Virus record (IMG/VR): IMGVR_UViG_3300030339_000027
Source of the DNA: an uncultured virus (IMG/VR IMGVR_UViG_3300030339_000027)
Lineage: Duplodnaviria > Heunggongvirae > Uroviricota > Caudoviricetes
Strand: one strand, 5' to 3'
DNA: 64,000 nt
The notes under the pieces were generated by a model. The model saw only the letters and a list, made by a program, of their open reading frames with translations. It was not told the DNA's origin and did no database searches. Positions within the stretch are counted from its first letter, which is position 1; each line of letters begins with the position of its first letter. The position numbers and the translations under genes were made by a program. This document shows positions 34,774 to 63,480 of this stretch, piece after piece.

Positions 34774-36591
34774 ATGAGAATAAATATACAGAAATTACAA
34801 GCAGGAGGAGGTCTATTAACTTATAGACCAACTCCTTCCTTTCAGCAACAAGAAGCTCCTCCTGCTCCTCCAGCAGAAGCTCCAATCAGTGATGATCTAT
34901 TAGATAAGATGGTAGGAGCTGGTATCACTAATGATGTTATGGAATATGCTAATGAGGTCAATGCAAAATTTAATGCTTATAGTACAATGCCTGAGTCATT
35001 AAGAAATTCTAGTGTGGGACGTACCATCAGACAGAGTTTAAAGGGAGATAGAGGAAGACTAAATGAAATTCTTAGGTCTAAAAAATACTTTGATGATACT
35101 ATTGAAACTAAGAAAAAGGCTATGTCAGAGTACGCTATTAAAGATGGCCAAGTACTTGTAAAAGATGCTGATAATAATATAGCCAATATGTCTTTAGCCC
35201 AATACTCTCAAAATCTTCAAAGTGAAGAACCTAAATATAAAGCAATGACTAATGATGAGTTAAGAATTGCTAGAGAAACTGATCCCAGATTTGCTGGTAA
35301 TAACACATTAATTGATATACTCTCCCATGCTACATCTACAGATGAAGTTACTGAAAGAGTTAGGAAAGCTTTAACTGATATAGGTAGTTTTACTAAAGGT
35401 CAAGCAGATGTATCTTATGAGCAACAGCAGATAGCAGATGGAGCCAATGCAGCTCTTAATAAAGGACTATCTTACGTTAAAACATCAGAGGGTGAATTTA
35501 AGCAATCTAACGCTGAGAATTTAAAAAGAGCTGGTAATGCTATGTGGGCTAATTTGGATCCAGATTCTAAGGATTTACTTAGAATGAAAGTAGTTCAAAC
35601 TAATTTGTATAAACCTGAACAAATAGAGAGCGCGGCAATGGGATTAGCGTTATCTTTGTTGCACCCAAAAGAAACCGAAATAGACAAATCAACTTCTGGG
35701 GAAGGTAAACCTGGTACTACTAAAACTGGTGGTGCAGGTTCTGCTAATAAAGCAATCTTAGGATATTGGAAAGCTTCCGTTACGGGAGAAGGAGTTCCTG
35801 AAGAAATTTCTGTATTAAATGGAGATAGTAATAGAGTAGTGATGAAGGGTTGGACTATGGGACCTATGGAGACTGATAAAAAAATGCTAAAAGGTCCAAC
35901 AAGTATTGATAAAATTCCTGAATTAGGAAGTATTGGTGAGATGAATAGTGTATACTTCGGTGATAAACGAGTAGATTCAAGTAAATTTGATTCAGTTATA
36001 TATGATAATACTAAACCAGCTATAGTCATGATGCCTTTTAAAGAACAGGATGATGGAAGCATTATGCCAGACTTAGAAAGAGCTAGTGATTTAGAAGATG
36101 CTCAACAAATCATCAAAAAACAAAATATTACATCACCAGAGATTAAAAAAGAAATTTACAGACAGCATAATTTTAATAGTTTTGATAGTAAAGGAGAACC
36201 TACACAAGATGTAGAAGTAAGACCTTTCTTTACTTTCTCTGCTTTTTCAAATTCTAATGCTATTGAAGGAGATTCTAAATGGTTTAGTCCAAAAGATGAT
36301 AGATATGATTGGTATAAAAAACAATTCGAAGAAGGTCCTAAAAAGACGGTTTCCTCTTCTTATTTTGACACCTCAATGTTTGCAGGATGGGCTAAACCAG
36401 ATGTATTAAAAGGAATGATTTATATACCAGTAAGAAAGGGAGCTGCATTCCTCTCAAATTATGCAGATCAAACAGAAGTTAAATTGCCTACTGAATTTGA
36501 AACAAATGAAGCATACGCAGGAAGCAAAAGAGCAGCTCCTGAATTTAGACAATTAGACAAAAAAACAAACTTAAGTTCAAGCACATTATAA
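34774..36591 (+). CDS. Internal cargo protein
   Basis: 605 aa, abuts the previous stop, begins with the KLQAGG motif shared with neighbouring proteins. Confidence 0.55.
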   Translation: MRINIQKLQAGGGLLTYRPTPSFQQQEAPPAPPAEAPISDDLLDKMVGAGITNDVMEYANEVNAKFNAYSTMPESLRNSSVGRTIRQSLKGDRGRLNEILRSKKYFDDTIETKKKAMSEYAIKDGQVLVKDADNNIANMSLAQYSQNLQSEEPKYKAMTNDELRIARETDPRFAGNNTLIDILSHATSTDEVTERVRKALTDIGSFTKGQADVSYEQQQIADGANAALNKGLSYVKTSEGEFKQSNAENLKRAGNAMWANLDPDSKDLLRMKVVQTNLYKPEQIESAAMGLALSLLHPKETEIDKSTSGEGKPGTTKTGGAGSANKAILGYWKASVTGEGVPEEISVLNGDSNRVVMKGWTMGPMETDKKMLKGPTSIDKIPELGSIGEMNSVYFGDKRVDSSKFDSVIYDNTKPAIVMMPFKEQDDGSIMPDLERASDLEDAQQIIKKQNITSPEIKKEIYRQHNFNSFDSKGEPTQDVEVRPFFTFSAFSNSNAIEGDSKWFSPKDDRYDWYKKQFEEGPKKTVSSSYFDTSMFAGWAKPDVLKGMIYIPVRKGAAFLSNYADQTEVKLPTEFETNEAYAGSKRAAPEFRQLDKKTNLSSSTL

Positions 36592-36592
36592 T

Positions 36593-39500
36593 ATGGAAAA
36601 TACTAAAGATACCAATGATTGGGTAGCCGCTAATTTAGCATTACCTGGAGCTCCTATAGAGGAATTTAAACAGAATAATATCACTCCAGAGAATACTACT
36701 TTAAAAGACAAAGACTTCTATAAAGGGACAAAAACAATACAAGAAACTTTCACTAATCCCGAGAATGGTAAATTTGATGATGATAAATACAATCAATTTT
36801 ATAATTCTATGCTATTCACTTATAATGAATATGCTAATCAAGATGCAGTAGGTAAAGCAGATAAAGACTTTGACTACGCACCCTTTGACATGTTTGCACC
36901 GCAAAATGCCAAAAGAGTACAGGATTTATATAAAATAGAAAAAGTAAGAAATCCTTTTAAAACAAAAGTTGGTATTGAGGATTTTAATTATAAAAGTAAA
37001 CCCGCACTTTCTTTAGAGGAAATAGCTCAGGATAATAATGTTAGAGACCATCTTACTGGAAAAGTATTAGATTGGACTCCTAATGATGATAGTGCCACAG
37101 GTATTTTTGATTTTCTAAAAAGACCTACTTTAGTAGTGGGGCAATATGATGAAGATGGGGAACACTATGATGAGTTTGAAGGAAGAAAAATTAAACACAG
37201 AAAAGGCGATTATAAATTAGATGCAGATGGTAAACCTTATTTTGAAACTTTAGGAGATAGAGAAGTTTATAATAGAGAAGTTTTAAATTGGTCTGATACT
37301 CTAACAAAAGAAGGTACTTGGTTAAATAAGTATGACTTCATGGATTCAGATGGTTTAGATAAATCTCATATTGGCAGTGTTATGAAAATGGCTGCCAAAG
37401 TAACTCCTTTATTCATACCTGGCGTGGGTGAAATTTATGCTGCTGGTATTTTAGGAGTAGATTTAATGAATGTAGTCCCAATTCTATTAAAAGCTGGAAT
37501 AGGTTCTGTAATTGGAGATAGAGATACTGATAAAGATTACTGGAAAACAATGAATAAAGTACAAGGAGTTGGTAAAACTCTCTCTGCTAATTCTGTTTCA
37601 GATTACGCTAAAACCAGTACATTTTCTTTTGAGAATATAAGTTCTATGTTGGGTGATGTATTTACACAATTATACACACAAAGAGCTATAGCCTCTATTC
37701 CTAAATATATAGGAATGAATAAAGCTAGTGTAGAACCTTTAAAAGAAGTAGCTGAGCATTTTGATGATGCTACTATAGCTAAAATATTTGAGGGGTCTCT
37801 TACCACTGGTGAACGTCATATGATACTTGAAAAAGTACCAGAAGCTGCTAATTACATTGATAGGGCAGTTAAATCTGCTAAGTTATCTAGAGCACTAGCT
37901 ACAACTTATATGTCAGCTACGTCGGCTGCAGGTGTCGCAGATCAAGCCAAAGCAATAGGTCTTGATGAGAGAGACACAGGTCTTTTATATTTAGGAACTT
38001 CTTTAGGCTTTTTTGGTATGATGACTTCATTGCCAATTGGAGAATGGGCTTTGAAAGGAATTGGTCTTGAAGAAACTGGTTTATTAGTTAATAGAGGTAT
38101 TAAAGATGCTGCACAACCTTTTGTAGAGGATCTTAAGAAACTAGGTAGTACTATGGTAAAAACACCAAGAGATTTTCAAAAAATCTTTAAAATAGGTAAA
38201 GCCATTGGTGATGCTGTAGGAAAAAAACTTAGTCATGTGGATGGTTATTTAGGAGCTATGGCTTCTGAGGGAACAGAAGAAGTCACAGAACAAGTTATGC
38301 AAGATTCTATTACTAATATTTATAATGGATTAGCTTCCTTAGGAATAACTTCAACTCAAGATCCTAAAAAACAGTTTACTTACGGAGATACCTCTGATAT
38401 AGTTGCAAACTATGCCATGAACTTTTTTGGTGGTGTAGCAGGTGGAGCTATGTTTAGATTTCATGATCAAATTGCAAATGGCAGTAGAGAAAATGATGAA
38501 TCTACTAAAGATATTTACTGGTTAATTAGAAATGGTTATAAAGATAAATTAGATGCTGCTACTAATAAATTAATTCAAAAGGGATACTTTGGAAGTACTA
38601 CATTAACAGCTGAACAGGTAGATATAGATCTTCCAGGAGCTGGGAGAAAGACAGTTATGCGTCCTAAAAGAGATGGTGATTTATCTCAAAATGAAGTTAT
38701 AGGTAGAACTATGTTGGGGCTATTTAATAATGTCCAGAATCAAATATTTCAAGAAGGAATTCAACCTGATAGTGCTCTTACCAGAGTGCTTGATGCTAGA
38801 TACGATTTAATAGTAAAAGATTTAAAAGTGAATAGTTCTCTTTATGAGGACCATACTGCTCTTGTAAATGATATTTTAGGATTAAATAATGATATTGCTA
38901 AAGCTTTAGCAGTTCCAGCAGATTTAAACTCTCCTGAATCAACTGTATTAGCTACTGCAGAATCTGTAAATGCTATGCAGATAAAATTAGCAGAAAAAAG
39001 AGAAGCTTTAAAGTTGATTACTTCAGGAGAGGCCTTTCCCTCATATCAAAGCCAGGCTTTATTTAATATGAGTCAGGTACTTAATGGTGCTTTTGGAAAT
39101 ACATCTGCTGATGATTTAGCTTGGAATAAATATAAAAAACATTATAGAGGACTTAATGAAACTGAGAAGAAAGACATTGATGAAGAATATGTTGCTTGGA
39201 AAGCTGCTAATAAAAAAGATGCACTTAAATCGGGTTATCGTACATTTAATTTTCTTAATGAAAAATTCTCTCCTAGATTAGCAGAACTAGCTAAATATGC
39301 AGAACAAAGAAAAGGACACTATACATTAGTAGATGAATTAGGTAATAAAAATAAGTTTAATCTCTCTGCAAATACATTAGCTGAGATTAGCAAATCTAAA
39401 AGTTATTTAGGTAAAACTTTAACTGTTAGTGAAGCATTAAATGATGCTATTAAAGGAAAAAAAGATGTTAATTCTATTTTAAAAGCAGTGGATGATATTA

Positions 39501-42500
39501 TGGGATTTGTTACCAATCCTAGTATTGACAGACTTGATAAGAATTTTACCAATGAAATGAGGGATGTATTTGACGGGCTCACTTTAAATGATTTAATTGG
39601 AGAAAATGCATCTTTATTTGATACATTAAGTGAGGATGAAAACTTTAATGAAGAGGGATTACCTGGAACTGATTATGACTTATTAAGTATAGATGATCTT
39701 TTAAATGAGAATCTTACAAGTGTTTTTAATAAACTAGACGCTGCTAAATTACATAATAAAGATAATCAACGTGCATTAAATACAATCACTAAAATCACTT
39801 CTTATATATTAGGTAATCCTAATGTTAATTTGATGAATAGTAAAAAAGCAGAATTTGAACAAGCTGTGCACGGAAGAACTATTAATACTTTAAATGAATT
39901 ATTAGACCAGTTTGATTTTTTACAAAATGGAACTAAATCTACTATTACTCAATTATTAACAAATGAGTTTGAAGCTTTAGGAAAAGTAAATGATATCAAT
40001 GATTATCAAATATATAATCCTAATACTATTGAAAATTTAGAAAGTGCTAAAGTATTACTTGAACGTTTACAAGCTTTAGTTATTGCCTCAACAGAATATG
40101 ATCATAAAAAACATGGTATCTCAGGTTATAATAGTATAATCAATAATACATTTAAAGGATCTCAATTAGGAATTATCACACAAGAACAAGCTACTCCTTT
40201 ATTAAAAGAAATTCAACAAATTAATGCAAAAATTGAATTATTTTTAACACTCTCTGCATTTAATAAAGAGAGTAAAGTGAAAAATAATATAGCTTCTGGT
40301 ATAAATATGGAGACTCTGTTCTTTGGACATTTACAAGAAGGTTCTTTTAGAAATATGTTGGATAGTTTAAAAATAGAAGAAGAAGAATTCATTACTCCTG
40401 ATATGGCTAAATCTATCGAGGATGCTAAAACCATAAAAAGATCTTTAGAAATTAAACAATCTAAAGAAGGAGAACTTCCATCTTCAGATGAAGAAGTATT
40501 TCAATTTGAAGCAGAACGTTTAAAAATAAATAAAGTATTCTTTGAGAGAGTAAAAGAACTTAATTTAAAATATGGAGAAGATAAAATACACGAATTACTC
40601 TTTAATAATACGTTAGCTAAACAATTATTTCCAGTAGCACAAATGAGTCATGCTACTCCTACTAATTTTAATACTACTACAACTCAAATTCAACCTTTAG
40701 ATTTATTTATATGGTGGAATACAATGGTTACAGAGGATCCTGCAGAATTCTATACTGAATTAAGAGGAGATGAAACAGAACCAGGTAAATATGATGGAAT
40801 AGAAACAAGTAAATATGTTCCATTTTATGCACAAGAGTATTCTGCTAAAATTATATTAAGTTTTCTTGATAATAAAAGTTGGATAAATAAATCTCTTAAT
40901 TATTTAGGAGGAGTTGATACAGAAGGCGCTGCTATTACTGGTACTTTTATGGGTAAATTACATGAAACCTTTAAAAATCTGGTATTTGTAAATGGTGTTC
41001 CTGGTGCTGGTAAATCATCTGCTGTTGGTTATACCGTAGCTAAAATATTGAAAAAGAGAGGTAAAACTTTCTGGACTGCTGGCGCTTATGATACACAAGC
41101 AAAACAATTGGAAACTCTATTAGAAAATCCAACTGCAAATGTTTCTTTTAATAAAACACGCTTATTAGCACAATTTCTTATTCCAGAAGCTGTTACAGAA
41201 ATTACTAATTCTAATGCTTCTTGTTTAGGCAAAGGAAGTATGACTGATATTGTAACTAAATTAGCTGAAAATAAATTAATTAAACTTAATAGAGTAGTAG
41301 AGAAACAAGAGGGAAAAGAATATGAAAAACTTAAGGTAGGTGAAATTAAACCAGAAGCATTCTTAGAAATAAACAGAAGTACTTTACCAGCAGCAATTTT
41401 TTTAGATGAGATTACTCATTTATCTATGATTGAATTAGAAGCATTACGTCAATCCTTAATACGTTTAGGAGAAGATGCTCCTCTTATAATAGGTTTAGGA
41501 GATTCACTTCAAAATGGTTTTAGAATTGCAGGGGAAGATCATAATATGGATATGTTTAGAACTTGGAATACTCCAAAATTAGCCGGATCATTAAGAACAT
41601 CTAATGATTTAAAGAATACTAATCTTATCAATACAGTTGCTAGATATAGTATGATTACAGAGGCTTATGATAAAGTATTTACTGAACAAAGTGTAGACTA
41701 TGCTGCAGTTAAAGCTAATATTGAAAGCATGCATAATCCTGATGATGAATCTACTTGGTATAAATTAGGTCACCATACTAATGAGATGGGAATTGTATTT
41801 GGAGAAAAGGTATCTAATGCTTTAGGAGTGTCTAAAGATTTAAAAAATATCTTAGATAATACAATTGGAACTGTGGGATTTATCACTGATAATAATACCT
41901 CAGAAAATGAAATTTTATCTGGATTAACTCCTTCTCAAAAAAGTAGATTAGACATTAAAAGTATAACTGATGTACAAGGTTTAGAATATGATCACATAGT
42001 AATAGATGTGGATTGGAATGCTTTAGCTCAAGATACTCCTATGGGTCCGCTTAACTTTATTTCAAATGTTTATACTTTAACTACTCGTTCTAGAGTTGGG
42101 AGTTTAATATTGGATAGAAATTTTAGTACCAACAATTATTTAGTAGTTAAATCTCAAGAAGCTAATCAAGTAATTGATGTTACTTTAGATAAAGAAATTC
42201 TTAAAAAATTTAAAGAAAAAAGAGTAGAAGATGTAACTAAATTAGCTAATTTTTTTGAAGGTACTACTTCTGTGACTCCTAAGATTAAATCTAAAGACGT
42301 TACTCCAGCTATTCTTCCTGTATCTGCTACTGAAAGTTTTGCTCAAGAAATTAAGAGAATGGACGAGGAAATTGAGGCAGCTGAAGCTGGTAATAGTTCT
42401 ACAAATAGACAAATGCCCACATTAGATCTAGCTCAAAAAAATACTCATTTAATGACTTACCCTTACTATGAGAGAGTAGGAGTTCCTGGAGAAGATGCTC

Positions 42501-44749
42501 TTATCTTTGGTTTAGAAGATGGAGAAAAACCTGATTTAAAATTCCTTATGGATATTAAAAACTCTGTATTCTATGGGGCAGGTGAAGATAAAATTATGGA
42601 AATCCTTAAAAATAAAGGAATTGATAATATTGATAGTTTAAAAGTAGTTGTGAGAGCTTCTATGTATAATCCTGTTACCGATACTGACAATTCTAAAGTT
42701 GTAAGTGGTAAAAGGGATGCTGATCAAGAGTTAACTACAAAAGATGTGTTTTTAAGGACGGCTTTAAGAATTGAACGTTCTGATAATACTGGAAAGTTAT
42801 CGCCCTTTTATATTACTTTAGGTGTATTTTCTTCTCCTAAAAGTACTTCAAAATATGATTATAAAAATGATGCTAAATTAAGTGATGTACTTAAAGATGT
42901 TACTGCTAAAGCAGAATTAGCTTTAAAAACTTCACCTAGTGTTGATTTAACAATTAATCATAGTAATCCTCTTGAGTTATTAAAATATACTACTAATATT
43001 CAACTTGATTATTTAGAAAATCCAATTAGTTTTAAAGATTTTAAAGAAGATCTTAGTAGATCAGCTGTAGTTTCTCCTATTCATATTTTTACTGGACATA
43101 ACAGTGCAGTAGCAGGCAGTCCCTCACAAAATCAGAGATTAAATGAGTGGATTAAAAAGGGAAATAACTCAGCTAAAGAAAGATCATTGGCCGGGAGGGC
43201 AGTAGTATTTGTATCTTTTGATAATAATTTAAAGTCTAGTGAATTAGCAGATAAATTTGCAGAAGAGATTATGACTAATAGTCCTAATCCTAGAGTAAAA
43301 GCTGTGATGTTAAATTCTAAAGGAACTGATCCTAAAATTTGGTTCGAAAATGCTTGGAATACTTTAGCAGATGCTAAAAAGAAACCTACTGAAAGAGTTG
43401 CGATGGGAACTTTAGCATCTCAACATATGGCTACTTTTATGGCTAGTACTATTAAAATGATGGCAGACTCTTCTAAATATACAGGAAAAACAGAGATCAT
43501 TAAGACTATTGCAAAGACTATAATTGAGAGACTTGGTACTGGTGAGGGTAATATGAATATTTTAGAAATAGATAGAAATGCAGAAGAAGCATTTAGATGT
43601 AAAGTTAAAGCTTATACGGATGATAAAATTAAAAATCCAGAAGAGTACTTAGCCTCAGCTGCTGCTGGTTATCTTAAATTAAAACCAAATCAAAGAATCT
43701 CTGCTTTTAACTTTAACCATACTTATAGATTATTAGTAGGCATGGGTATAGCAATGAATGGAGGTTTACACTCTGAAAGTGCAGAAGTTAAGCAGTATTT
43801 TGAACCTATTTCTAAATATACAACTCAATATGGAGAATTTTTAGAAGAATTTTATAGTTTACTTAGAAAGGAATTTGTACATGGTATATTTTCACATCCT
43901 TCTTATAATATTAGAGGGCCACGTACTAATAATGATTATGCTCAAATAGTAGAAAATGAAGAGGATGATTTTGAAGTAACAGCTCGTGCTACACTTCCTA
44001 ATTCACTTTTAAATCTTCAATTAGTTATGGATAATAAACAGTCTTTAAATAAAGAACAAACTGAAAAATCTAGAAATTTATCAAGTATCTCTGATTATAT
44101 AACTTTAAGACAAAATAGTATGTCTACAGAAATGATTGAGGAATTTATTAGAGGAGCTGGTGCCATTAGAAACTTATATGATGTAGGAAAAGAAACCTCT
44201 GTTGCTGCAATTATGTCAAATATTGACGCTCTTTATGATAAATTATCAAAAGCAGTGTATACTACCTCTAATTTAATAGACGGTATTAATAAAATGCAAT
44301 GGACTAATACTGAAGTCTCTCAAAAAGATGTAAGTAATCCTGAGAATAAAATTCAGAATAATGGGGATGGTTCTTTTGTAGTTACAGGAAATAATGGTAA
44401 ATTTGACTTCGAAATAAAATATAATATGAATGAATCAATCGAAGAAAATAAAATGAAAATCACTACTAATGAAAGACCTATTCCTTTAGAAGAAGTTGGT
44501 AACCTTATACAAAAAACTACTGATTTAGTAAATAAATTTAAAATGCAATACTCAGACATTATTCCTGAGGATATATTTGCAAATGTATTAAGTGCTCTAT
44601 CAACAGGAACAAGAGAAATAGTACCAGGAAGTGCAATGCAAATGGCATTTGCACAATTATCTGCACAAGCTCTTACATTAGATGATGAAGCATTACTAAA
44701 AACTTTACATGACTACACTAATACAAAAGACATCAATACTTGTAACTAA
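36593..44749 (+). CDS. Giant virion protein with N-terminal hydrophobic region and central superfamily-1 helicase-like domain
   Basis: Walker A GVPGAGKS (40994-41017), Walker B IFLDE, LGDSLQ, SLRTSN, DVQGLEYD and YTLTTRSR (42071-42094), in SF1 motif order. Confidence 0.8.
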   Translation: MENTKDTNDWVAANLALPGAPIEEFKQNNITPENTTLKDKDFYKGTKTIQETFTNPENGKFDDDKYNQFYNSMLFTYNEYANQDAVGKADKDFDYAPFDMFAPQNAKRVQDLYKIEKVRNPFKTKVGIEDFNYKSKPALSLEEIAQDNNVRDHLTGKVLDWTPNDDSATGIFDFLKRPTLVVGQYDEDGEHYDEFEGRKIKHRKGDYKLDADGKPYFETLGDREVYNREVLNWSDTLTKEGTWLNKYDFMDSDGLDKSHIGSVMKMAAKVTPLFIPGVGEIYAAGILGVDLMNVVPILLKAGIGSVIGDRDTDKDYWKTMNKVQGVGKTLSANSVSDYAKTSTFSFENISSMLGDVFTQLYTQRAIASIPKYIGMNKASVEPLKEVAEHFDDATIAKIFEGSLTTGERHMILEKVPEAANYIDRAVKSAKLSRALATTYMSATSAAGVADQAKAIGLDERDTGLLYLGTSLGFFGMMTSLPIGEWALKGIGLEETGLLVNRGIKDAAQPFVEDLKKLGSTMVKTPRDFQKIFKIGKAIGDAVGKKLSHVDGYLGAMASEGTEEVTEQVMQDSITNIYNGLASLGITSTQDPKKQFTYGDTSDIVANYAMNFFGGVAGGAMFRFHDQIANGSRENDESTKDIYWLIRNGYKDKLDAATNKLIQKGYFGSTTLTAEQVDIDLPGAGRKTVMRPKRDGDLSQNEVIGRTMLGLFNNVQNQIFQEGIQPDSALTRVLDARYDLIVKDLKVNSSLYEDHTALVNDILGLNNDIAKALAVPADLNSPESTVLATAESVNAMQIKLAEKREALKLITSGEAFPSYQSQALFNMSQVLNGAFGNTSADDLAWNKYKKHYRGLNETEKKDIDEEYVAWKAANKKDALKSGYRTFNFLNEKFSPRLAELAKYAEQRKGHYTLVDELGNKNKFNLSANTLAEISKSKSYLGKTLTVSEALNDAIKGKKDVNSILKAVDDIMGFVTNPSIDRLDKNFTNEMRDVFDGLTLNDLIGENASLFDTLSEDENFNEEGLPGTDYDLLSIDDLLNENLTSVFNKLDAAKLHNKDNQRALNTITKITSYILGNPNVNLMNSKKAEFEQAVHGRTINTLNELLDQFDFLQNGTKSTITQLLTNEFEALGKVNDINDYQIYNPNTIENLESAKVLLERLQALVIASTEYDHKKHGISGYNSIINNTFKGSQLGIITQEQATPLLKEIQQINAKIELFLTLSAFNKESKVKNNIASGINMETLFFGHLQEGSFRNMLDSLKIEEEEFITPDMAKSIEDAKTIKRSLEIKQSKEGELPSSDEEVFQFEAERLKINKVFFERVKELNLKYGEDKIHELLFNNTLAKQLFPVAQMSHATPTNFNTTTTQIQPLDLFIWWNTMVTEDPAEFYTELRGDETEPGKYDGIETSKYVPFYAQEYSAKIILSFLDNKSWINKSLNYLGGVDTEGAAITGTFMGKLHETFKNLVFVNGVPGAGKSSAVGYTVAKILKKRGKTFWTAGAYDTQAKQLETLLENPTANVSFNKTRLLAQFLIPEAVTEITNSNASCLGKGSMTDIVTKLAENKLIKLNRVVEKQEGKEYEKLKVGEIKPEAFLEINRSTLPAAIFLDEITHLSMIELEALRQSLIRLGEDAPLIIGLGDSLQNGFRIAGEDHNMDMFRTWNTPKLAGSLRTSNDLKNTNLINTVARYSMITEAYDKVFTEQSVDYAAVKANIESMHNPDDESTWYKLGHHTNEMGIVFGEKVSNALGVSKDLKNILDNTIGTVGFITDNNTSENEILSGLTPSQKSRLDIKSITDVQGLEYDHIVIDVDWNALAQDTPMGPLNFISNVYTLTTRSRVGSLILDRNFSTNNYLVVKSQEANQVIDVTLDKEILKKFKEKRVEDVTKLANFFEGTTSVTPKIKSKDVTPAILPVSATESFAQEIKRMDEEIEAAEAGNSSTNRQMPTLDLAQKNTHLMTYPYYERVGVPGEDALIFGLEDGEKPDLKFLMDIKNSVFYGAGEDKIMEILKNKGIDNIDSLKVVVRASMYNPVTDTDNSKVVSGKRDADQELTTKDVFLRTALRIERSDNTGKLSPFYITLGVFSSPKSTSKYDYKNDAKLSDVLKDVTAKAELALKTSPSVDLTINHSNPLELLKYTTNIQLDYLENPISFKDFKEDLSRSAVVSPIHIFTGHNSAVAGSPSQNQRLNEWIKKGNNSAKERSLAGRAVVFVSFDNNLKSSELADKFAEEIMTNSPNPRVKAVMLNSKGTDPKIWFENAWNTLADAKKKPTERVAMGTLASQHMATFMASTIKMMADSSKYTGKTEIIKTIAKTIIERLGTGEGNMNILEIDRNAEEAFRCKVKAYTDDKIKNPEEYLASAAAGYLKLKPNQRISAFNFNHTYRLLVGMGIAMNGGLHSESAEVKQYFEPISKYTTQYGEFLEEFYSLLRKEFVHGIFSHPSYNIRGPRTNNDYAQIVENEEDDFEVTARATLPNSLLNLQLVMDNKQSLNKEQTEKSRNLSSISDYITLRQNSMSTEMIEEFIRGAGAIRNLYDVGKETSVAAIMSNIDALYDKLSKAVYTTSNLIDGINKMQWTNTEVSQKDVSNPENKIQNNGDGSFVVTGNNGKFDFEIKYNMNESIEENKMKITTNERPIPLEEVGNLIQKTTDLVNKFKMQYSDIIPEDIFANVLSALSTGTREIVPGSAMQMAFAQLSAQALTLDDEALLKTLHDYTNTKDINTCN

Positions 44750-54853: not shown

Positions 54854-54854
54854 C

Positions 54855-57800
54855 ATGGCATGTACACTAACGTTCACTTTAGGTGGAATAAAATATAATA
54901 TACCTGCAGAAGGTAATCTTGCTGATTATGACGGAAAAAACCTCACAGATATATTAGGATCTTTAGATTCTCATACACAAATTAATTTATTAGAGAATAT
55001 TTTAAAATATTCTAACATTCAGCCGTATGATTATGAAGAAAATCCAACTGTAACTAATTTAATAGCTTCTAATAATATTCCGAATATTAGTGTAAGCAAG
55101 TTAACAGAAAAATTAGGAGATTTAGTTTTACCTGATGGATCTAATCATTTTAAATTACGTCAAGTAGTTTTAAGTATGTTAAATGAAAAGACTGATAAAA
55201 TATCTTTAGTTTCTGCACAAATCACAGATGGTTCCAAAAAAGGACATGGAGTATTTATTTCACAAACTGGAAGTATCTATGTGCATGCTAAACCTAATGA
55301 TAAAATTGATACTCTTGAGGATTATTTTTTAGGAAAGGATAGCAAAGTCTTACTAGAACGTCTTGCTCATGAATTAACTCATAGTAAATTAGATGCATTA
55401 ATGGTTAATCAACCAGAACTTGCCAAGGAATTAGTTGAGGAATGGAATTCAAAAAAAGGAGGATTATCTGATGAATTTAAGAGTATTAAAAGTAGTATTG
55501 ACAAGTTAAAAACAAATGAAGCAAAAGCAAACGAAATTATTGCTTATTACTTTAGTGATTTCCAATTACAAGGGGCTTATCAAAGTAAAACACTAGAAGA
55601 TGCTTTTAAAAGTATGGTTTCAAATATAATTCCATTAGAAACAATAGTTTCTACTTCTACTCCTGGCTATTTTGATTCTTCCAATCCATATGAGGATTAT
55701 GACCATTCTAGATATAAGAATCATTGGGATGATCCTGTTTGGCAATATAGACATCCTGAATTAGAACCTCCATTCACAGGAGATACTAATGCTTCTCTTC
55801 AAAAAATGGTTGCAGAGATAGATCCAACTTCTGAGAATTACCAAGCAGATAAAGCTAAACAAATCTTAGCTAGATTTAATGCTAATACCTCTGATATTCA
55901 AGAAAATTCTGAATTTAAATACCAGAAATATGATGTTTCTTATGGAGCACCTATTGTTATTGATGATTTTAATAGAGATATTCAAATCTTAAGATTAGCA
56001 GAAAATGACTTGGTATTAGTAAGTAAAGATATCTTCCTAAATCCCAAAACAAAAGAATGGGAAGCTAGGCCTACTAAAAAAGGTGAGGAAAAGTCTTCAT
56101 ATCGTCCTGTTATTAGTACTTATATTAATGCTAATAATGAAGTAATGATTAATCTACCTATTAAAGATGGTAGTGGTAAAACATATTCTCTACCAGCTAA
56201 GTTTGTAGAAAGTTTACGTAAATATGATGGAGATTTAATAGATACTCCTTATAATAAAGAAAAAGCTAAAGAATATGCAGATTGGATGGTTGCTAATGTA
56301 AATTCAGCATATGGTGATGATCCTGCCGATAGTTCTATAATTAGAACTATAGATATTACTTCTAAAACTGGAAAAAGCTTTCAAATTTCAGTGGCTTCTA
56401 ACTATGAATCTTATGGATTTAAATTTTATAACCAAGAATCTGCTAGAGAAATCTATGATGGAGCTGAAGTTGGAGATGTAGTTAAAGTGTTTATAAAAGA
56501 AAAAGGAGATAAGAAAGCGGGAGGATATCGCGCTAAAATACTACGTAAATTTGGAAACTCAGTTGAAGTAGTTACTTCTAAAGGTGCTGTACTTATTGTA
56601 AAACCCTCTGCTATCAATGAGGTAATCTATTTAAAAGAAAATCATCCAGACTTTTTATCACAAGTAGAAAATATTGATAAAGGGACTATTAGCCAAGATC
56701 TTATTGATGATGGTAATAGTCAATTTAGAAAATATCGTAAAGTAAATTTTGTATCACAAAATAAAAAAGATGGGGAATTTCAAGATAAGATTAATGATTA
56801 TTTTGATATTTATTCAAAAGAAGATTCTGCTATTAAAGTAGAGAGACGTCGCGCTGAAGTTAAAAAACTTAAAGCCGGAGATCTTATAAAGGTTAAATGG
56901 TATTACACAGATACAAAAACTAAAGAAGATAGAGAAGTGTCACACTGGTATCCAGTAGTTACTAAAACCTCTGATTTAGTTTACTATTACAATTCTACTT
57001 CTGAGAAAGTATCTTCTGTGAATATTTTAGATGGTAAAGGATATGAAATCTATGGATTAGCTATAAATAATACAAATTCTTCTAAATTATTTGATGAATT
57101 TAATGAAATCAGAAAAAGTATAGAAGGATTACGTAGAGATGATACTGGTACATTACTCTCAGATGATGCTATTAAAAATAACTTAGGAGAAGCTCTTAGA
57201 AATGCAGAACCATCTAGTTTACAAGACATTTATCATATCACAGAAATAGAAGATGTAGATGAAGTAGCAGCTGGAGAAGATAATGACCTTAAATTATCAG
57301 TATCTCAAGTACAAAGAGGTAGTATTGTTAAAGCCTATGTATTTGATATAGATGAAGAAGGTAGAGACAAAAAAACTAAAATTTATAAATGGTTTGTAGT
57401 AACTGGCTTTGATGAAAACACTGGAAGACCTATATGTGTTACACAAACTAAAGATAAAAATGGTAAAACTGGTGTATATAAAGAATATCCAATTGAATTT
57501 CAGAATATTAAAGCAATAGGTCATAGATTAACTGATAATGCTGATTTAGGAATTTATGGAAATAAAACTCTAAAAGAATACTTAGATAAGTTAAGAAAAA
57601 CTTTTGATACTATTAGTGAACCTATTTTTATTACTCAAGCTGAAACTCCTAAATATGAGAGATCAAATAGAACTTTTAACACAGCTTTATATGGTTTACT
57701 TAAAAACGGAAAGATGGGTTATGCAGTGTCTGATAAATATGTAATAGAACAATTTAAAGATAAGACTGATTTTGAAGAATGGAAGAAAAATACACCAGAA

Positions 57801-59039
57801 GCTAAAGGATTAACCTGGACTTATACTGAACCTAAGTTGTATATTTTAAGAGGTAAACAATATATGAAGAAACTCTATATGAATTACTTAGAAGTACACG
57901 GTTTACTTAATTATGAACCCAACATACATGATAGTGTAAGAATTGGTGATATAGTTACTGAAACATGGAAGTACCAAGGAGATGATGTTAAAATGGACTC
58001 TATGATTACTGCTAAAACTCCTACAGGATTATGGGTGGAACGTTTAGGAAAAAGTCCTTCAGGGGATTCTATTTCGGTTAGAAAAAAGATATATAGACAT
58101 AGAGAAGGAGTTGAATATCCTCAGATCTCAGATGTATACTTACATAAAAAACGTGATACTACCTCAACTTCTAGAGAAGACGCTAAAAGTAGACAAACTA
58201 ATCTTTTAATTGGTAATACTCAGTATGAAGAGAAGATTAAAAATCTAGATCAGGAAACTAAAGAAAGAAAAGCAAGTACTTTAAAAAAACCACTTAAAGC
58301 TTCTTTAGATACTGATAATTTCTATAAGAGTAGAGATTCGGAAAGTAAGATTATGGAAATTGTAGATAAACTACAATCTACTTATAATGTGCCTATTATA
58401 ATGCTTAGAACTAATGAGATTGCTCAAAGTTTTGGTGATATTTTAGGAACTGATGCTACTAAAGTTAGAGGATTTATAAATGAGGGTAAAGTTTATATAA
58501 ATTTAGATAAAGCTTCTTCTGCAGAACCTCTACATGAGATGGCACATATTATATTAGAGAGTATTAAAGCCAATGACTATAATTTATATCAAACGGTTAT
58601 TAATTCTGTTAAGTCTCATCCATACTATGATGCTATAGCTAAAAATTATCCTAATAGGGCCCCGGAAGACTTAGATGAAGAAGTATTTGTTTCTATTTTT
58701 GGAGAAAAATATAGAACAGTTACTCATAATCAATATAATAAGTCTTGGTATGATCAAAATGAAAGTATATTTACAAATATCTGGAATTATATGAAAAATA
58801 CTTTTGCTTCTATTTTTGACAATAAATCTATCTTGGATATTCCAAATGAAAAGCTTGCTATGATGCCTTTAGACGAATTAATTAGTACCTTTGGGGACAA
58901 TTTGATGGAAGGTAAATTTAAACACGTTTTAAATTATGATACATCAACTCTTGAGAGAAAAGTGACCAATTTAAAGACAAATCTTTTATCAAATGAAGAT
59001 GAATCAGAAAGTTACCTTAGAAAAACTTGTAATACTTAA
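54855..59039 (+). CDS. Giant virion protein with two zincin-like (HExxH) metallopeptidase motifs and central KOW/SH3-like repeats
   Basis: LAHELTH (55368-55382) followed by NEIIAY; LHEMAH (58533-58547) preceded by GFINEGKVYIN and followed by DEEVFV. Confidence 0.72.
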   Translation: MACTLTFTLGGIKYNIPAEGNLADYDGKNLTDILGSLDSHTQINLLENILKYSNIQPYDYEENPTVTNLIASNNIPNISVSKLTEKLGDLVLPDGSNHFKLRQVVLSMLNEKTDKISLVSAQITDGSKKGHGVFISQTGSIYVHAKPNDKIDTLEDYFLGKDSKVLLERLAHELTHSKLDALMVNQPELAKELVEEWNSKKGGLSDEFKSIKSSIDKLKTNEAKANEIIAYYFSDFQLQGAYQSKTLEDAFKSMVSNIIPLETIVSTSTPGYFDSSNPYEDYDHSRYKNHWDDPVWQYRHPELEPPFTGDTNASLQKMVAEIDPTSENYQADKAKQILARFNANTSDIQENSEFKYQKYDVSYGAPIVIDDFNRDIQILRLAENDLVLVSKDIFLNPKTKEWEARPTKKGEEKSSYRPVISTYINANNEVMINLPIKDGSGKTYSLPAKFVESLRKYDGDLIDTPYNKEKAKEYADWMVANVNSAYGDDPADSSIIRTIDITSKTGKSFQISVASNYESYGFKFYNQESAREIYDGAEVGDVVKVFIKEKGDKKAGGYRAKILRKFGNSVEVVTSKGAVLIVKPSAINEVIYLKENHPDFLSQVENIDKGTISQDLIDDGNSQFRKYRKVNFVSQNKKDGEFQDKINDYFDIYSKEDSAIKVERRRAEVKKLKAGDLIKVKWYYTDTKTKEDREVSHWYPVVTKTSDLVYYYNSTSEKVSSVNILDGKGYEIYGLAINNTNSSKLFDEFNEIRKSIEGLRRDDTGTLLSDDAIKNNLGEALRNAEPSSLQDIYHITEIEDVDEVAAGEDNDLKLSVSQVQRGSIVKAYVFDIDEEGRDKKTKIYKWFVVTGFDENTGRPICVTQTKDKNGKTGVYKEYPIEFQNIKAIGHRLTDNADLGIYGNKTLKEYLDKLRKTFDTISEPIFITQAETPKYERSNRTFNTALYGLLKNGKMGYAVSDKYVIEQFKDKTDFEEWKKNTPEAKGLTWTYTEPKLYILRGKQYMKKLYMNYLEVHGLLNYEPNIHDSVRIGDIVTETWKYQGDDVKMDSMITAKTPTGLWVERLGKSPSGDSISVRKKIYRHREGVEYPQISDVYLHKKRDTTSTSREDAKSRQTNLLIGNTQYEEKIKNLDQETKERKASTLKKPLKASLDTDNFYKSRDSESKIMEIVDKLQSTYNVPIIMLRTNEIAQSFGDILGTDATKVRGFINEGKVYINLDKASSAEPLHEMAHIILESIKANDYNLYQTVINSVKSHPYYDAIAKNYPNRAPEDLDEEVFVSIFGEKYRTVTHNQYNKSWYDQNESIFTNIWNYMKNTFASIFDNKSILDIPNEKLAMMPLDELISTFGDNLMEGKFKHVLNYDTSTLERKVTNLKTNLLSNEDESESYLRKTCNT

Positions 59040-59049
59040 AATAATATAA

Positions 59050-62000
59050 ATGAGTAAATGTAAATTCACCTTAACAGTAAAAGGTAATAATATAGAATTT
59101 GATACTGAAGAACAATTAAATTCATATCTTAAAACCAATTATGACACTCTTTCTAGAGGTCATATTGGCGGAGATGTGGAATTATCTACTGTATTAGAAG
59201 GGAAAGAAAAGACAAAATTAGAACAAACTGTGGCTAAATTACAAACCATTGCTTCAAAGACTCCTGAGATAACTACTGTAGAGTTTAACGAGAATGGTGA
59301 GAGAGTAATTAAATCAGCCTATGAAGGTGTTACTAAAAGAATAAAGCGTCTTGCAAAAGCCGGGGGATTACCTGTGACTTATTATGATGAAAAAAATTAT
59401 ATTGATAATAGATTGATTCAAATACGAAGCGCACTTCGTAGGGGGGTAGGTCCGGAAACTTTAAAGGCAGACTATGCTAATATTATCTCTAAATTTACCA
59501 CAGGAGTTGAGCAATTAAAAGGAGCAGAGTCTGAAACTTATGATAAGCTAACTAAAGCTCTTATTATGCCTTTAATTATTAAAGAACAGGCACAAAGAAA
59601 ATTATTGGGAACATTTGGAACAAACTTACATAGAATGGCAGAGACATACTTTGCAAACAGATTAGAAAACTCAGATAAGTCTTTTTCCATTGGTAATTTC
59701 CCCGCAGGTATTACAAATCTTTCTACAGAAGGAAAAGAAAATTATTTACAGTATTTAAAAGAATTAACTAACTTTTTAAAGTCAGAACATGGAGATGATG
59801 TAGTTCTTCTCCCAGAATATAAAATATTTGATGATGCTACCAAATTAGTAGGAATTATTGACTTATTAGCAATAGATAGTATGGGTAAAGTTCATATTTA
59901 TGACTTTAAAGCCTCATATAAAGATCCTTCTGATTGGCATTCAGCTAAACAGATTGAATTTAAATATCAATTAGGCATTTATTCTAATATGTTGAAAAAT
60001 AAAGGATTTGATGTACGTGGAATACAGGTTTTACCTATTACCATGCTTGATATTAATTTTGATGATGAAACTATTCCAAGATTAGCCGAACATCTTCCTT
60101 TTGATGCAAGTCCCTCTGAAGATATTAAATATAATATCAATAATAGTGTTATTCCTTTAACAACTGCTGCTTTCTTTGAATCTACATCTAATAGTCATGC
60201 TATTATCACTGAAAATCTAAAAAAGGCTTGGGGATACAATTTAAAATTAAAATCATCCTACGCTAATGTTCAAGCTTTTAAAGATAGTAGTAGAGTTACA
60301 ACTGATATAAATAAACCTGGAGTATTCACTTTCTGGGATAATATTAAACGTAAGTTTATTGATAATACTGCTGAGAGTTTAGATAAAAACATTGAGAATT
60401 ACTTAAAATCAGAAGCTGAGGCAACCTCTTCTGAGTTACTCCGTTTTAAAGATTGGATGATTGCCTCTATTGCTGGGAAAAAACAACTTATAGACTTCAA
60501 AAGAAGAAGTGAGATAGGTAATATTCATATGGTAAGAGCTTTTGAAAAATATACTAAAGGAGGATGGACTTTAGTTGCAGATGATGCAGATCTAGATAGT
60601 TTAGGACTTTTAATGTTTGTAAATGAATCTAATAAGTCCGTAGAATTTGTATCTTATACAGTAAATGCTTTAAATAAAAAGGTTAAACTTCCAATTGGTT
60701 CTACTATAGTAGGAAACTTTATTTCTGATGGTAAAGGACTTGAATTACCTGATTTATTACCAGCTACAAATGGCAACATAGAATTATTAAAGACTTATTT
60801 CTATATTAATGAAAATGCAGAAAAATTAAAAGATTTTACTGTAGGTAGAGTTATGGCTTATAATCCAATTAATTCTGAATTTGTAGTAAATAACAATGAT
60901 GTGCTTAAAACTAATTTTGGATATTTAATCTCTAGATTAGAAGGTAAAAATACAACTTTAGAAGTAAATACTACTGATAAATTATTAGCTCTTCATAATC
61001 AATTTGTTGAAATTATAACTGAACCTTCTACTTCACAATCAGAAAAAGATTTAGTGAATAAATACTTAACCACTTTAAATGATTACCAGAACACTGGCCG
61101 TATGGAGAGTCTTAAAATTATACAAAAAGATTTACATATGTTATTGAACAAATATGGTCAACATAAAGTAAATAGTTTTATGTTATTTGAGGAAAAACTC
61201 TATGGTATGATCAGTGAGGCTATTGTAGCAGAAGCTGACTTAAGAATTTCTACCTCAGAAAAAGATATTCCTAAATATAGTGCAAATGGTACTATGCTTT
61301 CTAATCCTGGAAGTATTGGCTCTCGTAATTTACGTGTATTTGTGGATGTAATTAAGTTATCTATGCATAAAATACGTAGAAGACAAACTGAATTCAAAGC
61401 AACTAACGTTGAGATCTTTGATAAGTATCTAACTTCTAAAGGAAAAACTAATTTACGTAGAGCTACTGTTGGAGACAACATTAGGGCTTATGATTCTTTG
61501 TTTGAGGGAAATTCTCCTAATAAAGAACTTATTTTAAAGAATCCATATGATAAAAATACTCCACTAAATAATGAGGAAAGAGAATTTTTAAAGTATTTCT
61601 TAAAAGAAATTAATTTTAGAAGATTTAACACTCAATCTCTTGATTCTGAAACAGCTCAAGACATGATTTCAAGTAAGGAATGGTTTAAATTGCCTTTATT
61701 AAGAGCATCTAGTTCTTCAAAAGCTTCTAATATGAGTCTTAAAGGATTAAGAGATGCTACTACAGAAAATTGGAATAGTTTCTTAAATACTAATCACTTA
61801 TTTGATGAGAAAGATGAACAAGCTGTAAAAAACAGAAGTGAGGATATGTTTACTATGTTTAATGAGTTTAATTTTCATGCACATCCTGATGCTCGTATGA
61901 AATTGATCGAGCAGCAGAGTCCTAATGCATTTGAAACTAATTTAGAGAGAGTTTTAGACAATTTTGTATTTTCCGCTATTAGAAAAGAAGAATATGATGA

Positions 62001-63480
62001 CATGTTACCTATTGCTAATGCTGTACGTACTACTATCGCTTATAATGGATTTGGAGTAAACATTCCAGTTCCTAATGCCTTAGAATTTATGGATAAGTAC
62101 TCACAAGCAGCTGTTTTCAATGAAAAATCTATACCACCTGAATTAAGAGGAGTATACAAAGGGATTAGTATAATTAAGGATATTACTAGTAAAATGAACT
62201 TAGGTATTAACCCATTAAGTGGTTTTGTTAATACTTTACAGGGTTTATGGGGTAATGTGTCTAGAATTACTGCTGGTAAGTACCCAAACATGTTCGGAAA
62301 AGAAGATTATTTTTGGGCTTTGAATCATTTTTGCAAAGATTCCTCTGAATCTATGACTAAATTGACTGTTTTGGAGAATTTAAACATGATTTATGGTATC
62401 AATAATATGGATATTAATATCCTCTCAGAGGTCATGTCAAAGAATAATAGTGGTCTTTTAAACTTCAAATCCAAGTATTTATACTGGATGGCGTATGCTC
62501 CTGACTATTTTAATCGTATGACTCTTTTTATTGCTCAAATGCATAAAGATGGTTGTTTTGAAGCTCATAAGATGGTTGGAAACCAAATGGTATATGATTG
62601 GACACTTGATAAAAGATTCTCTGAGTATGCTAAAGGAAACACTTCACACCCAGACTATAATAATCAATTCTCTTTATATATGGCTGTTTTAGCTGATTTT
62701 AATAAAGAAGGGTATGCCTTAACAAAAGGACAAGCACTACCTTATGCTTATACTGGAGCGCAAAGAGAGAGTATGAAAATGTTCTCTGATAGTATTCATG
62801 GTTACTATGACCATGAAAGTAAAACACTTGCAAATAATACTATTTTAGGGGTTTTATTCTTTCAGTTTAAGACCTGGATTACTGCTAAAAAAGATCAATG
62901 GGCTCTTCATCCTGATACATATGCTATTGGGGATTATGGACCACTTGTCTTAGATGGGGTAAAGCAATTTATAGATAAAGATGGAAATCAGACTACTGAA
63001 GATACTGGTATGCCTATGATGAAAATGCAAGGCTCTTTTCAAGAGGGTATATTATATTCATTAAAAGGTATGGCTCAAGATTTTCAAGAAGCTAAATGGG
63101 ATATTGGTAAATTATGGGAAATGACGAAAGAACATCCTGAGAGAATGTCTAATATGAAATTAATGCTTTTTGATTTAGGAGTAGTTATAGCTATGGCAAT
63201 TACAACAGGTCTTATTGATTGGGATCAACTAAAAAAAGATGACACTTATGCTTATACTATGTATAGAGCCATTATCAGATCTAGTTCAGATTTAAATGTT
63301 TTAAATAACGTTACCACTGTATTAGATATGAAAAAGTCACCATTTATGTCGTTTAACTATATGGGAGATTTAATTTATGGGATGGGACCTGTATTAACAG
63401 GTGATCAAGATTTCTCTAAATATCTCTTCACAAATACTGGTCTTTTGAGGCCGTTTACACCGCTGCTTGCAACAAAGTAA
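59050..63480 (+). CDS. Giant virion protein with PD-(D/E)xK nuclease domain and helical, partly hydrophobic C-terminal region
   Basis: FGTNLHRMAE...PEYKI...GIIDLLAID...IYDFKAS...YQLGIY is a RecB/AddB-like nuclease signature. Confidence 0.78.
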   Translation: MSKCKFTLTVKGNNIEFDTEEQLNSYLKTNYDTLSRGHIGGDVELSTVLEGKEKTKLEQTVAKLQTIASKTPEITTVEFNENGERVIKSAYEGVTKRIKRLAKAGGLPVTYYDEKNYIDNRLIQIRSALRRGVGPETLKADYANIISKFTTGVEQLKGAESETYDKLTKALIMPLIIKEQAQRKLLGTFGTNLHRMAETYFANRLENSDKSFSIGNFPAGITNLSTEGKENYLQYLKELTNFLKSEHGDDVVLLPEYKIFDDATKLVGIIDLLAIDSMGKVHIYDFKASYKDPSDWHSAKQIEFKYQLGIYSNMLKNKGFDVRGIQVLPITMLDINFDDETIPRLAEHLPFDASPSEDIKYNINNSVIPLTTAAFFESTSNSHAIITENLKKAWGYNLKLKSSYANVQAFKDSSRVTTDINKPGVFTFWDNIKRKFIDNTAESLDKNIENYLKSEAEATSSELLRFKDWMIASIAGKKQLIDFKRRSEIGNIHMVRAFEKYTKGGWTLVADDADLDSLGLLMFVNESNKSVEFVSYTVNALNKKVKLPIGSTIVGNFISDGKGLELPDLLPATNGNIELLKTYFYINENAEKLKDFTVGRVMAYNPINSEFVVNNNDVLKTNFGYLISRLEGKNTTLEVNTTDKLLALHNQFVEIITEPSTSQSEKDLVNKYLTTLNDYQNTGRMESLKIIQKDLHMLLNKYGQHKVNSFMLFEEKLYGMISEAIVAEADLRISTSEKDIPKYSANGTMLSNPGSIGSRNLRVFVDVIKLSMHKIRRRQTEFKATNVEIFDKYLTSKGKTNLRRATVGDNIRAYDSLFEGNSPNKELILKNPYDKNTPLNNEEREFLKYFLKEINFRRFNTQSLDSETAQDMISSKEWFKLPLLRASSSSKASNMSLKGLRDATTENWNSFLNTNHLFDEKDEQAVKNRSEDMFTMFNEFNFHAHPDARMKLIEQQSPNAFETNLERVLDNFVFSAIRKEEYDDMLPIANAVRTTIAYNGFGVNIPVPNALEFMDKYSQAAVFNEKSIPPELRGVYKGISIIKDITSKMNLGINPLSGFVNTLQGLWGNVSRITAGKYPNMFGKEDYFWALNHFCKDSSESMTKLTVLENLNMIYGINNMDINILSEVMSKNNSGLLNFKSKYLYWMAYAPDYFNRMTLFIAQMHKDGCFEAHKMVGNQMVYDWTLDKRFSEYAKGNTSHPDYNNQFSLYMAVLADFNKEGYALTKGQALPYAYTGAQRESMKMFSDSIHGYYDHESKTLANNTILGVLFFQFKTWITAKKDQWALHPDTYAIGDYGPLVLDGVKQFIDKDGNQTTEDTGMPMMKMQGSFQEGILYSLKGMAQDFQEAKWDIGKLWEMTKEHPERMSNMKLMLFDLGVVIAMAITTGLIDWDQLKKDDTYAYTMYRAIIRSSSDLNVLNNVTTVLDMKKSPFMSFNYMGDLIYGMGPVLTGDQDFSKYLFTNTGLLRPFTPLLATK

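Follow-up and report, generated by a model that had tools for sequence, protein, structure and literature searches.

Paired terminal cysteines at the junctions of five giant genes in a crAss-like phage: a candidate head-to-tail disulfide chain of cargo proteins

Introduction

Among the phages of the human gut, crassviruses are the most abundant. The delivery of more than 1 MDa of protein, a polymerase included, through their narrow tail is described as an open question in work on the crassvirus crAss001 (PMC10172136). Here we take up this question at a locus of an uncultured virus of the Caudoviricetes (IMG/VR IMGVR_UViG_3300030339_000027), whose record is a 67-kb fragment rated 38% complete; the stretch of 64,000 nucleotides that was analysed is referred to throughout as the window. 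Five co-directional open reading frames (ORFs) on the + strand, named w1 to w5, span positions 36593–63480 of the window, and each of the four junctions between them is flanked on both sides by a cysteine (Cys) that lies within a few residues of the end of its protein. Why should giant proteins with very few Cys keep one at each end that faces a neighbour? We describe this pattern, follow it through relatives, and weigh the possibility that the facing Cys link the five proteins head to tail in the virion.

A cysteine at every facing end

The array begins with w1 (36593–44749, 2718 amino acids (aa)), the gp47-like first protein, followed by w2 (44749–52353, 2534 aa), which holds a DYDID motif at aa 2265 together with DUF7831, and w3 (52346–54853, 835 aa counted from the ATG, with an alternative TTG start at 52331). 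It continues with w4 (54855–59039, 1394 aa), which has a conserved C-terminal domain with an HExxH motif, and ends with w5 (59050–63480, 1476 aa), the gp49-like last protein with a PD-(D/E)XK nuclease domain. Summed, the five proteins come to 8,957 residues and 1,012.5 kDa and contain 16 Cys, eight of which are at the four junctions.

At the first junction Cys2717 of w1 (codon 44741–44743), followed by one Asn and the stop, faces Cys5 of w2 (44761–44763); at the second, Cys2532 of w2 (52342–52344) faces Cys5 of w3 (codon at 52358); at the third, Cys835 of w3 (54848) faces Cys3 of w4 (54861); and at the fourth, Cys1392 of w4 (59028) faces Cys4 of w5 (59059). Counted from the C-terminus the upstream partners lie at −2, −3, −1 and −3, and the downstream partners at N-terminal positions 5, 5, 3 and 4, so that Cys is found 1–5 residues from the end in eight of the eight junction-facing termini. 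The remaining Cys are interior: 1544 and 2336 in w1; 983, 2095 and 2206 in w2; none in w3; 861 in w4; and 1095 and 1169 in w5. The two outer ends of the array, the N-terminus of w1 (MENTKDTNDW) and the C-terminus of w5 (PLLATK), are free of Cys. From the Cys frequency of w1–w5 themselves, the probability of a Cys at all eight facing termini is ~2e-18, and it is ~2e-15 with the window-wide Cys frequency of 0.43%.

Much of this had been claimed in an earlier sequence-only reading of the same DNA. Its five ORFs and all its Cys codon coordinates were re-derived exactly, and the ORF translations confirmed that Cys stands on both sides of all four junctions, that the outer termini have none, and that the protein of ~835 aa has only its two terminal Cys. 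Its manual count of about 16 Cys, eight of them terminal, in ~8,950 residues and its array mass of ~1 MDa agree with the computed values, and the C-x-x-T..G letters that it read at three N-termini are present.

Conservation across relatives

Relatives were collected by a profile search of IMG/VR with w5, which gave 55 loci at 22–30% identity (individual loci carry L numbers below); the counts that follow refer to 19 representative lineages unless stated otherwise. Near relatives, at ~80% identity, retain all termini. The window reads with translation table 11, and in other loci open frames required TAG to be read as Gln (12 loci: L029, L031, L033, L034, L036, L038–L040, L048, L051, L053 and L058) or TGA as Trp (four loci: L052 and L054–L056). 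An automatic rule scored a junction as Cys/Cys when Cys was present in the last 6 residues of the upstream protein and in the first 7 residues of the downstream one. Three boundaries between a homing-endonuclease ORF and exon 2 of an intron-split polymerase gene (L007, L041 and L052) and three window junctions upstream of w1 were dropped from the count, and L035, whose middle ORF has an in-frame stop, was read by hand.

By this rule 39 of the 41 protein-to-protein junctions are Cys/Cys, across 19 lineages that share 20–30% identity and use three genetic codes. The two remaining junctions (L048 and L052) pass on inspection: L048 is Cys/Cys if translation begins at an ATG five codons upstream (MLKC...), and L052 has its C-terminal Cys at −8. 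The N-terminal Cys is at position 3 in 24 cases, 4 in 10, 5 in five and 6 in one, and the C-terminal Cys at −1 in 14 cases, −2 in 22, −3 in four and −8 in one. None of the 19 lineages has a last protein with a C-terminal Cys. The opposite end of the array behaves in the same way: a profile scan with w1 found 26 loci, and among the seven of these that were examined the w1/w2 junction is Cys/Cys in all five that reach it, the N-terminus of the w1 homologue is without Cys in 7 of 7, and those w1 homologues that were seen in full length (2,860–3,008 residues) each contain a single Cys, close to the C-terminus.

In alignments the terminal Cys stand out among the few fixed residues. Cys4 of w5 is one of 31 invariant columns in 20 sequences, and in 21 sequences it is invariant alongside five residues of the nuclease domain; Cys3 and Cys1392 of w4 are two of only 6 invariant columns in 20 sequences; and Cys835 of w3 is one of 13 invariant columns in 19 sequences, among which Cys5 of w3 is not conserved. 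Away from the termini Cys is scarce, making up 0.24% of the 85,436 chain residues against 1.7% in a background of 162 other ORFs of at least 150 aa from the 19 loci, spurious ORFs included. In that background 11 of 162 ORFs have Cys in the first 7 residues, 15 of 162 have it in the last 6, and 0 of 162 have both. One lineage (L020) has an additional chain protein of 333 aa (L020 7222–8223), which starts MSAKNC and ends ...RKGCE and for which BLAST against the other representatives found no relatives.

Named phages carry the same pattern. In crAss001, the only Cys of gp47 (2341 aa) is residue 2339, gp50 (2412 aa) has three, at 5, 1334 and 2404, and the only Cys of gp49 (1349 aa) is residue 5. 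In DAC15, the 2222 residues of gp078 include one Cys, at 2220, gp076 starts MSKTC and ends ...NKIC, and gp077 starts MSKC. The phi14:2 protein g067 has one Cys, its last residue, the RNA polymerase (RNAP) g066 has only Cys3 and Cys2179, and g065 has only Cys3. The rule is followed at two junctions of IAS virus and at one junction each of FpV4, Leptolyngbya phage Lbo-JY46, crAss002 and the p-crAssphage-like MW067002. For crAss002 gp33 and MW067002 QOR56529 this holds only from an internal M-S-C start, which is a re-reading of the annotation; in-frame M-S-C lies 33 residues inside crAss002 gp33 (L063 8163) and 21 inside QOR56529 (L093 13286).

Identity of the five proteins

Upstream of the array, Pfam identifies crassvirus structural genes: Crass_capsid, the crassvirus major capsid protein, at 12098–13522 (E 1.6e-15) and crAss_MUZ, the muzzle protein, at 22952–28285 (E 2.6e-26). 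On this gene content the window is a portion of a crAss-like phage genome. Within the array, w1 is 27% identical to a 2967-aa protein of MT835470 and by its sequence matches the gp47-like first protein of relatives. The DYDID motif of w2 is of the DxDxD type, the catalytic-type motif of crAss virion RNAPs, with DFDVD in crAss001 gp50 and DFDID in phi14:2 g066 as its equivalents, and regions homologous to w2 sit in RNAP-bearing ORFs of 17 lineages. w3 corresponds to the C-terminal part of the RNAP-bearing protein and is joined to the w2 part in other lineages; a second DYDID pentapeptide is found in w3 at aa 730 (54533–54547). In w4 the HExxH motif (aa 1227–1231; 58533–58547) is nearly invariant in the penultimate protein across 20 sequences, and the domain that holds it probably corresponds to a zincin-like protease that the phi14:2 preprint notes in this module (bioRxiv 10.1101/2020.03.07.982082). 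The Pfam nuclease domain of w5 covers aa 186–341 (59605–60072); an AlphaFold2 (AF2) model of its residues 1–480, with a mean predicted local distance difference test score (pLDDT) of 71.4, matches the nucleases Exo5, MGME1 and Cas4 in Foldseek (E 2e-4), and the C-terminal part of w5 resembles crAss001 gp49.

Other searches added little. A fold model of w3 (mean pLDDT 64.7) had no significant Foldseek match in the PDB, the best having E 0.22, and in the comparison with the solved phi14:2 gp66 the entry 6vr4_A appeared at rank 50 (E 2.2); phmmer of w1 and w2 against the PDB gave no match, PDB searches with the profiles labelled A2, A3 and A7 gave nothing useful, and a PHROGs search gave no match for w1 to w4. 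From the sequence evidence the five proteins are best explained as internal crassvirus cargo, comprising a gp47-like protein, a split virion RNAP, a zincin-motif protein and a nuclease-bearing gp49-like protein. Presence in the virion is known for homologues: crAss001 gp47, gp49 and gp50 were found by mass spectrometry (PMC10172136), and the record notes of phi14:2 g065–g067 state tandem mass spectrometry (MS/MS).

Protein pairs that come and go with the gene boundary

The cut between w2 and w3 is present only in the lineage of the window; in 17 of 17 other representative lineages both regions lie in one ORF. For 10 of these the linker at the w2/w3 site can be bracketed within at most 100 residues, and these linkers hold 0 Cys; the other seven have long unaligned stretches with 0–3 Cys and are uninformative. 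Both Cys are present at the boundaries of separate genes, as the sequence-only reading had predicted when it proposed that Cys would be gained or lost in pairs as genes split or fuse: the two Cys come and go with the gene boundary. The lack of Cys at this site in the fused forms rules out the idea that an ancestral C-x(n)-C loop was divided afterwards. Single terminal Cys are also found in two proteins of other arrangements. FpV4 gp32 (4287 aa) carries its RNAP region in its C-terminal half, after ~2,600 residues, and has its only Cys at 4286, the interior being Cys-free; BLAST of those first ~2,600 residues against gp47 gave no match, and gp32 is therefore not assignable as a gp47–RNAP fusion. 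The 2748-aa protein of Lbo-JY46 has its only Cys at position 4.

The pattern also survives where the genes are not neighbours. In crAss001, gp47 is encoded convergently to gp50 and gp49, and its 3' end is not beside the start of gp50, which lies ~11.5 kb from gp47 on the opposite strand, yet the pattern is complete. Because the first gene is here not adjacent to the second, a motif acting at the junction on the level of DNA is excluded. The junction Cys codons are TGT in 65 cases and TGC in 16, and the spacing of the genes at junctions ranges from −17 to +29 nt. The use of both codons, the variable spacing and the layout of crAss001 together indicate that selection acts on the protein.

A proposed disulfide chain and its alternatives

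We propose that the facing terminal Cys form head-to-tail intermolecular disulfides in the virion, and we put the probability of this reading, which draws on the sequence patterns above and on an analogy described below, at roughly 0.65. Each C-terminal Cys would bond to the Cys at position 3–5 of the next protein, the bonds forming once the particle leaves the reducing cytoplasm, and w1-w2-w3-w4-w5 would then be one covalent head-to-tail chain of ~1 MDa with a fixed order and 1:1 stoichiometry. The disulfide would stand in for the peptide bond present in fused lineages, stubs of at most 5 residues would leave it slender enough to go through the tail in one piece, and reductants of the host cytoplasm would part the pieces after entry. 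We infer both the oxidised state of these Cys in the particle and, further along the same line, passage through the tail as a single thread followed by reductive release. That the stubs are very short and sit exactly where the fused relatives are joined by a peptide bond suggests selection for a covalently continuous cargo.

A bond of this kind has been seen in the cyanopodophage A4 (Anabaena phage A-4L), where cryo-electron microscopy (cryo-EM) resolved a disulfide between Cys1715 of gp27 and Cys5 of gp26 (PNAS 2025, PMC12002296). The C-terminal helix of gp27 inserts there in a cleft of gp26 within the pre-ejectosome, a five-fold ring, and the bond is described as stabilising (PMC12002296). 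According to the A-4L record, the two proteins (gp27, 1717 aa; gp26, 1114 aa) have exactly one Cys each, at the disulfide positions. Disulfides between subunits are also present in crAss001 virions, in proteins of the tail and the portal vertex (PMC10172136). Of the claim in the sequence-only reading that the terminal Cys pairs are intermolecular disulfides, what stands is that they behave as pairs between proteins, by their invariance at 20–30% identity, the split/fused pattern, crAss001 and the A4 analogy; the bond itself we hold as probable.

Several observations weigh against a disulfide chain. Some terminal Cys are orphans: a window ORF at 30182–30613 ends ...KKC, and FpV4 gp30 and a 674-aa protein of Lbo-JY46 start MKKKC, in each case without an evident partner. 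The C-terminal Cys lies deeper in at two places, at −8 in L052 and at −9 in crAss001 gp50. The annotated starts of crAss002 gp33 and MW067002 QOR56529 have no N-terminal Cys; these starts are probably too far upstream, and the M-S-C start would match the N-termini of all relatives. Similarly, the annotated start of IAS virus gp056 has no Cys though gp055 ends ...LILCNGD, at a place with ambiguous bases. The 19 lineages are represented by one locus each, chosen by eye from identities and terminal peptides without formal clustering. A4 gp27 and gp26 show no detectable homology to w4 and w5 (hhalign probability 0.1% and 0.04%, BLAST E >0.1), so that the A4 precedent is an analogy; 9k3a was likewise not hit in the PDB profile searches, and A4 gp26 (PDB chain 9k3a_A) is absent from the 50 best fold matches to the model of w5 residues 1–480. 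Lastly, both Cys-bearing tails of the single-chain w3 model are at pLDDT <50, and therefore no statement on their geometry is possible.

The models also bear on the N-terminal hairpins and the short docking strands that the sequence-only reading had proposed. The w5 model has strands at residues 6–10 and 13–17 and a helix at 20–35 (pLDDT 59–75), that is, a beta-hairpin and helix right after Cys4 in a single-chain model of moderate confidence, which agrees with the idea. In the w3 model residues 1–16 are without structure (pLDDT <50), and with both its tails undefined w3 lends the idea nothing.

The strongest alternative keeps the disulfides and gives them another role. They would only hold the internal core together as a static staple, with no translocation as a single thread, and would be broken or rearranged before or during ejection. 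The A4 bond, described as stabilising the insertion of a helix in a five-fold ring (PMC12002296), fits such a role, as does the conserved helix-like motif ...L-x-E-x-C in which the penultimate protein ends. However, a staple could sit anywhere in an interface, and here the Cys are always 1–3 (rarely 8–9) residues from the C-terminus and at N-terminal position 3–6, exactly where fused relatives have a peptide bond. We consider the staple plausible but unlikely.

Two further alternatives, each with a small chance of being right, replace the disulfide by something else. In one, the paired Cys would hold a bridging metal ion or cluster between neighbours, with which their paired conservation is also compatible, the gut being mostly anoxic; but each terminus offers one Cys, the alignments have no second conserved ligand (His, Cys or Asp) beside it, A4 shows a disulfide and crAss001 virions form disulfides. 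In the other, the Cys would have a different chemical or signalling role, for example in acylation, in a thioester, in attachment to some other partner or as a packaging tag, and would pair only indirectly. The orphan terminal Cys of neighbouring proteins favour such a role; it sits poorly with the joint gain and loss of both Cys at split and fused sites, with the absence of an N-terminal Cys from the first protein and of a C-terminal Cys from the last in every lineage examined, and with a Cys at position 3–6 that has no signal peptide or lipobox context.

An intramolecular disulfide that closes each middle protein from N- to C-terminus is very improbable: w2, w3 and w4 do have one Cys at both ends, but w1 and w5 have a single terminal Cys, as does each protein in the systems made up of two (A4, Lbo-JY46, FpV4 and crAss002), and the A4 bond is intermolecular. 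That the Cys codons merely reflect a signal in the nucleotides between genes, be it for translational coupling or a promoter, as might be read from the TGTAA formed by three of the four C-terminal Cys codons of the window, is as good as dismissed, being already contradicted by crAss001 (whose gp47 keeps its C-terminal Cys far from gp50), DAC15 and IAS virus, by the use of both TGT and TGC at variable spacing, and by the invariance of Cys under three genetic codes. Two other candidates were rejected. Split inteins and protein trans-splicing are ruled out: intein halves measure ~100 and 35 aa and flank the catalytic Cys and Asn, and there is no room for them because the Cys are at most 5 residues from the termini, and Pfam finds no intein family in w1–w5. 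A bacterial lipoprotein Cys is ruled out as well, the Cys being at position 3–5 right after the start Met with no signal peptide or lipobox.

The disulfide chain can be extended to a fuller account, in which RNAP and companion enzymes would be packaged as a disulfide-stitched ordered polymer of up to ~1 MDa, ejected as a single string and unstitched by reduction. This would apply to Crassvirales and to some relatives outside the order, the chain being led by the Cys-free N-terminus of the gp47-like protein. We offer this fuller account tentatively and regard it as somewhat doubtful. If a disulfide can indeed replace a peptide bond, then giant genes could be split, fused or extended, as with the 333-aa protein of L020, without breaking the chain.

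Whatever the fate of the fuller account, the rule of one Cys per facing end offers a specific hypothesis of how the cargo could be packaged in fixed stoichiometry, ejected in order and released. It also aids annotation by predicting the true starts of giant genes, as for crAss002 gp33 and MW067002 QOR56529, and by telling which neighbouring proteins belong to the cargo chain.

Neighbouring genes and further observations

Three ORFs just upstream of w1 (28300–29337, 30679–34773 and 34774–36591) have zero Cys. Proteins encoded ahead of the chain, as seen in the window ORFs 30182–30613, 30679–34773 and 34774–36591 and in the upstream ORFs of L069 and L083, are Cys-free but for an orphan terminal Cys (...MSKKC) in the Gly/Ala/Pro-rich ORF of 143 aa at 30182–30613, and several of them begin with a motif that resembles K-x-Q-x-G-G (MKFKVKYLQEGG, MRINIQKLQA, MEIINKIQKLQGGG). 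FpV4 gp30 (L094 2054–3850) and the Lbo-JY46 protein at L064 2626–4650, both upstream of the chain, start MKKKC..., position 5 being their only Cys.

In MT835470 (L004 18061–19098) and in loci of the L007 type, the RNAP gene is split inside DYDID by a group I intron, which comes with a LAGLIDADG homing-endonuclease ORF. Matches to the group I intron family Rfam RF00028 are weak (E 0.003 and 0.011), and sister contigs of the intron-bearing loci, e.g., L008, have an uninterrupted RNAP ORF. MW067002 has two annotated thioredoxin genes (L093 26970–27248 and 27974–28237) just downstream of its giant RNAP genes, and these may be relevant to the thiol chemistry of the cargo.

Comparison with known systems

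The nearest known arrangement in the crassviruses is the three-gene module of crAss001 (gp47/gp50/gp49) and phi14:2 (gp67/gp66/gp65), which shares with the window the crass capsid and muzzle context, the DxDxD motif, a gp49-like last protein, the zincin motif and the terminal Cys. The module has five genes in the window against three in crAss001 and phi14:2, and the w2/w3 cut is lineage-specific. In their accessible text neither the crAss001 paper (PMC10172136) nor the phi14:2 preprint mentions the terminal Cys, the latter having 0 occurrences of 'cysteine' or 'disulfide' (bioRxiv 10.1101/2020.03.07.982082). The gp57 dimer, tail hub and ring proteins of crAss001 are described as carrying intermolecular disulfides in a crassvirus particle (PMC10172136), as proposed here; they belong to ordered capsid and tail parts, unlike the proposed links between cargo proteins. 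In the fused giant polyprotein forms (Drobysheva et al., bioRxiv 2020.03.07.982082) the modules and their order are unchanged, and the cargo is covalently continuous. In these, continuity is by peptide bond and cleavage by a protease after synthesis has been proposed, whereas continuity in the window would be by disulfide and separation by reduction.

Outside the crassviruses, the ejected proteins of Schitoviridae (N4 gp50 and DEV gp71–73) avoid Cys, which has been read as an adaptation to passage through the envelope (PMC11445570). Strong depletion of Cys in a giant virion RNAP and the proteins that accompany it is common to both, and the interior depletion in w1–w5 and their relatives is the Cys avoidance described for Schitoviridae; the proteins of Schitoviridae are reported to be essentially Cys-free (PMC11445570), whereas here one Cys is retained at each junction-facing end.

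The closest parallel to the proposed links is A4. The only Cys of its gp27 is at −3 (NPCQF) and that of its gp26 at position 5 (MSKHC), and both are internal ejection proteins, one following the other and joined by a bond that was seen by cryo-EM. Unlike the array, A4 has a single link between two proteins in a 42-kb podophage. The accessible text of the A4 paper describes the stabilising bond and no chain rule, with RNA polymerase and crassvirus mentioned 0 times (PMC12002296). In open-access PMC papers and bioRxiv we found no description of a terminal-Cys rule for Crassvirales. The view of the sequence-only reading that no such system had been described accordingly holds for Crassvirales within that literature and gives way for A4, where one such link is in print (PMC12002296). 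Judged by its sequence, what the window would add is a case of five proteins and four links, with a lineage-specific split of the polymerase.

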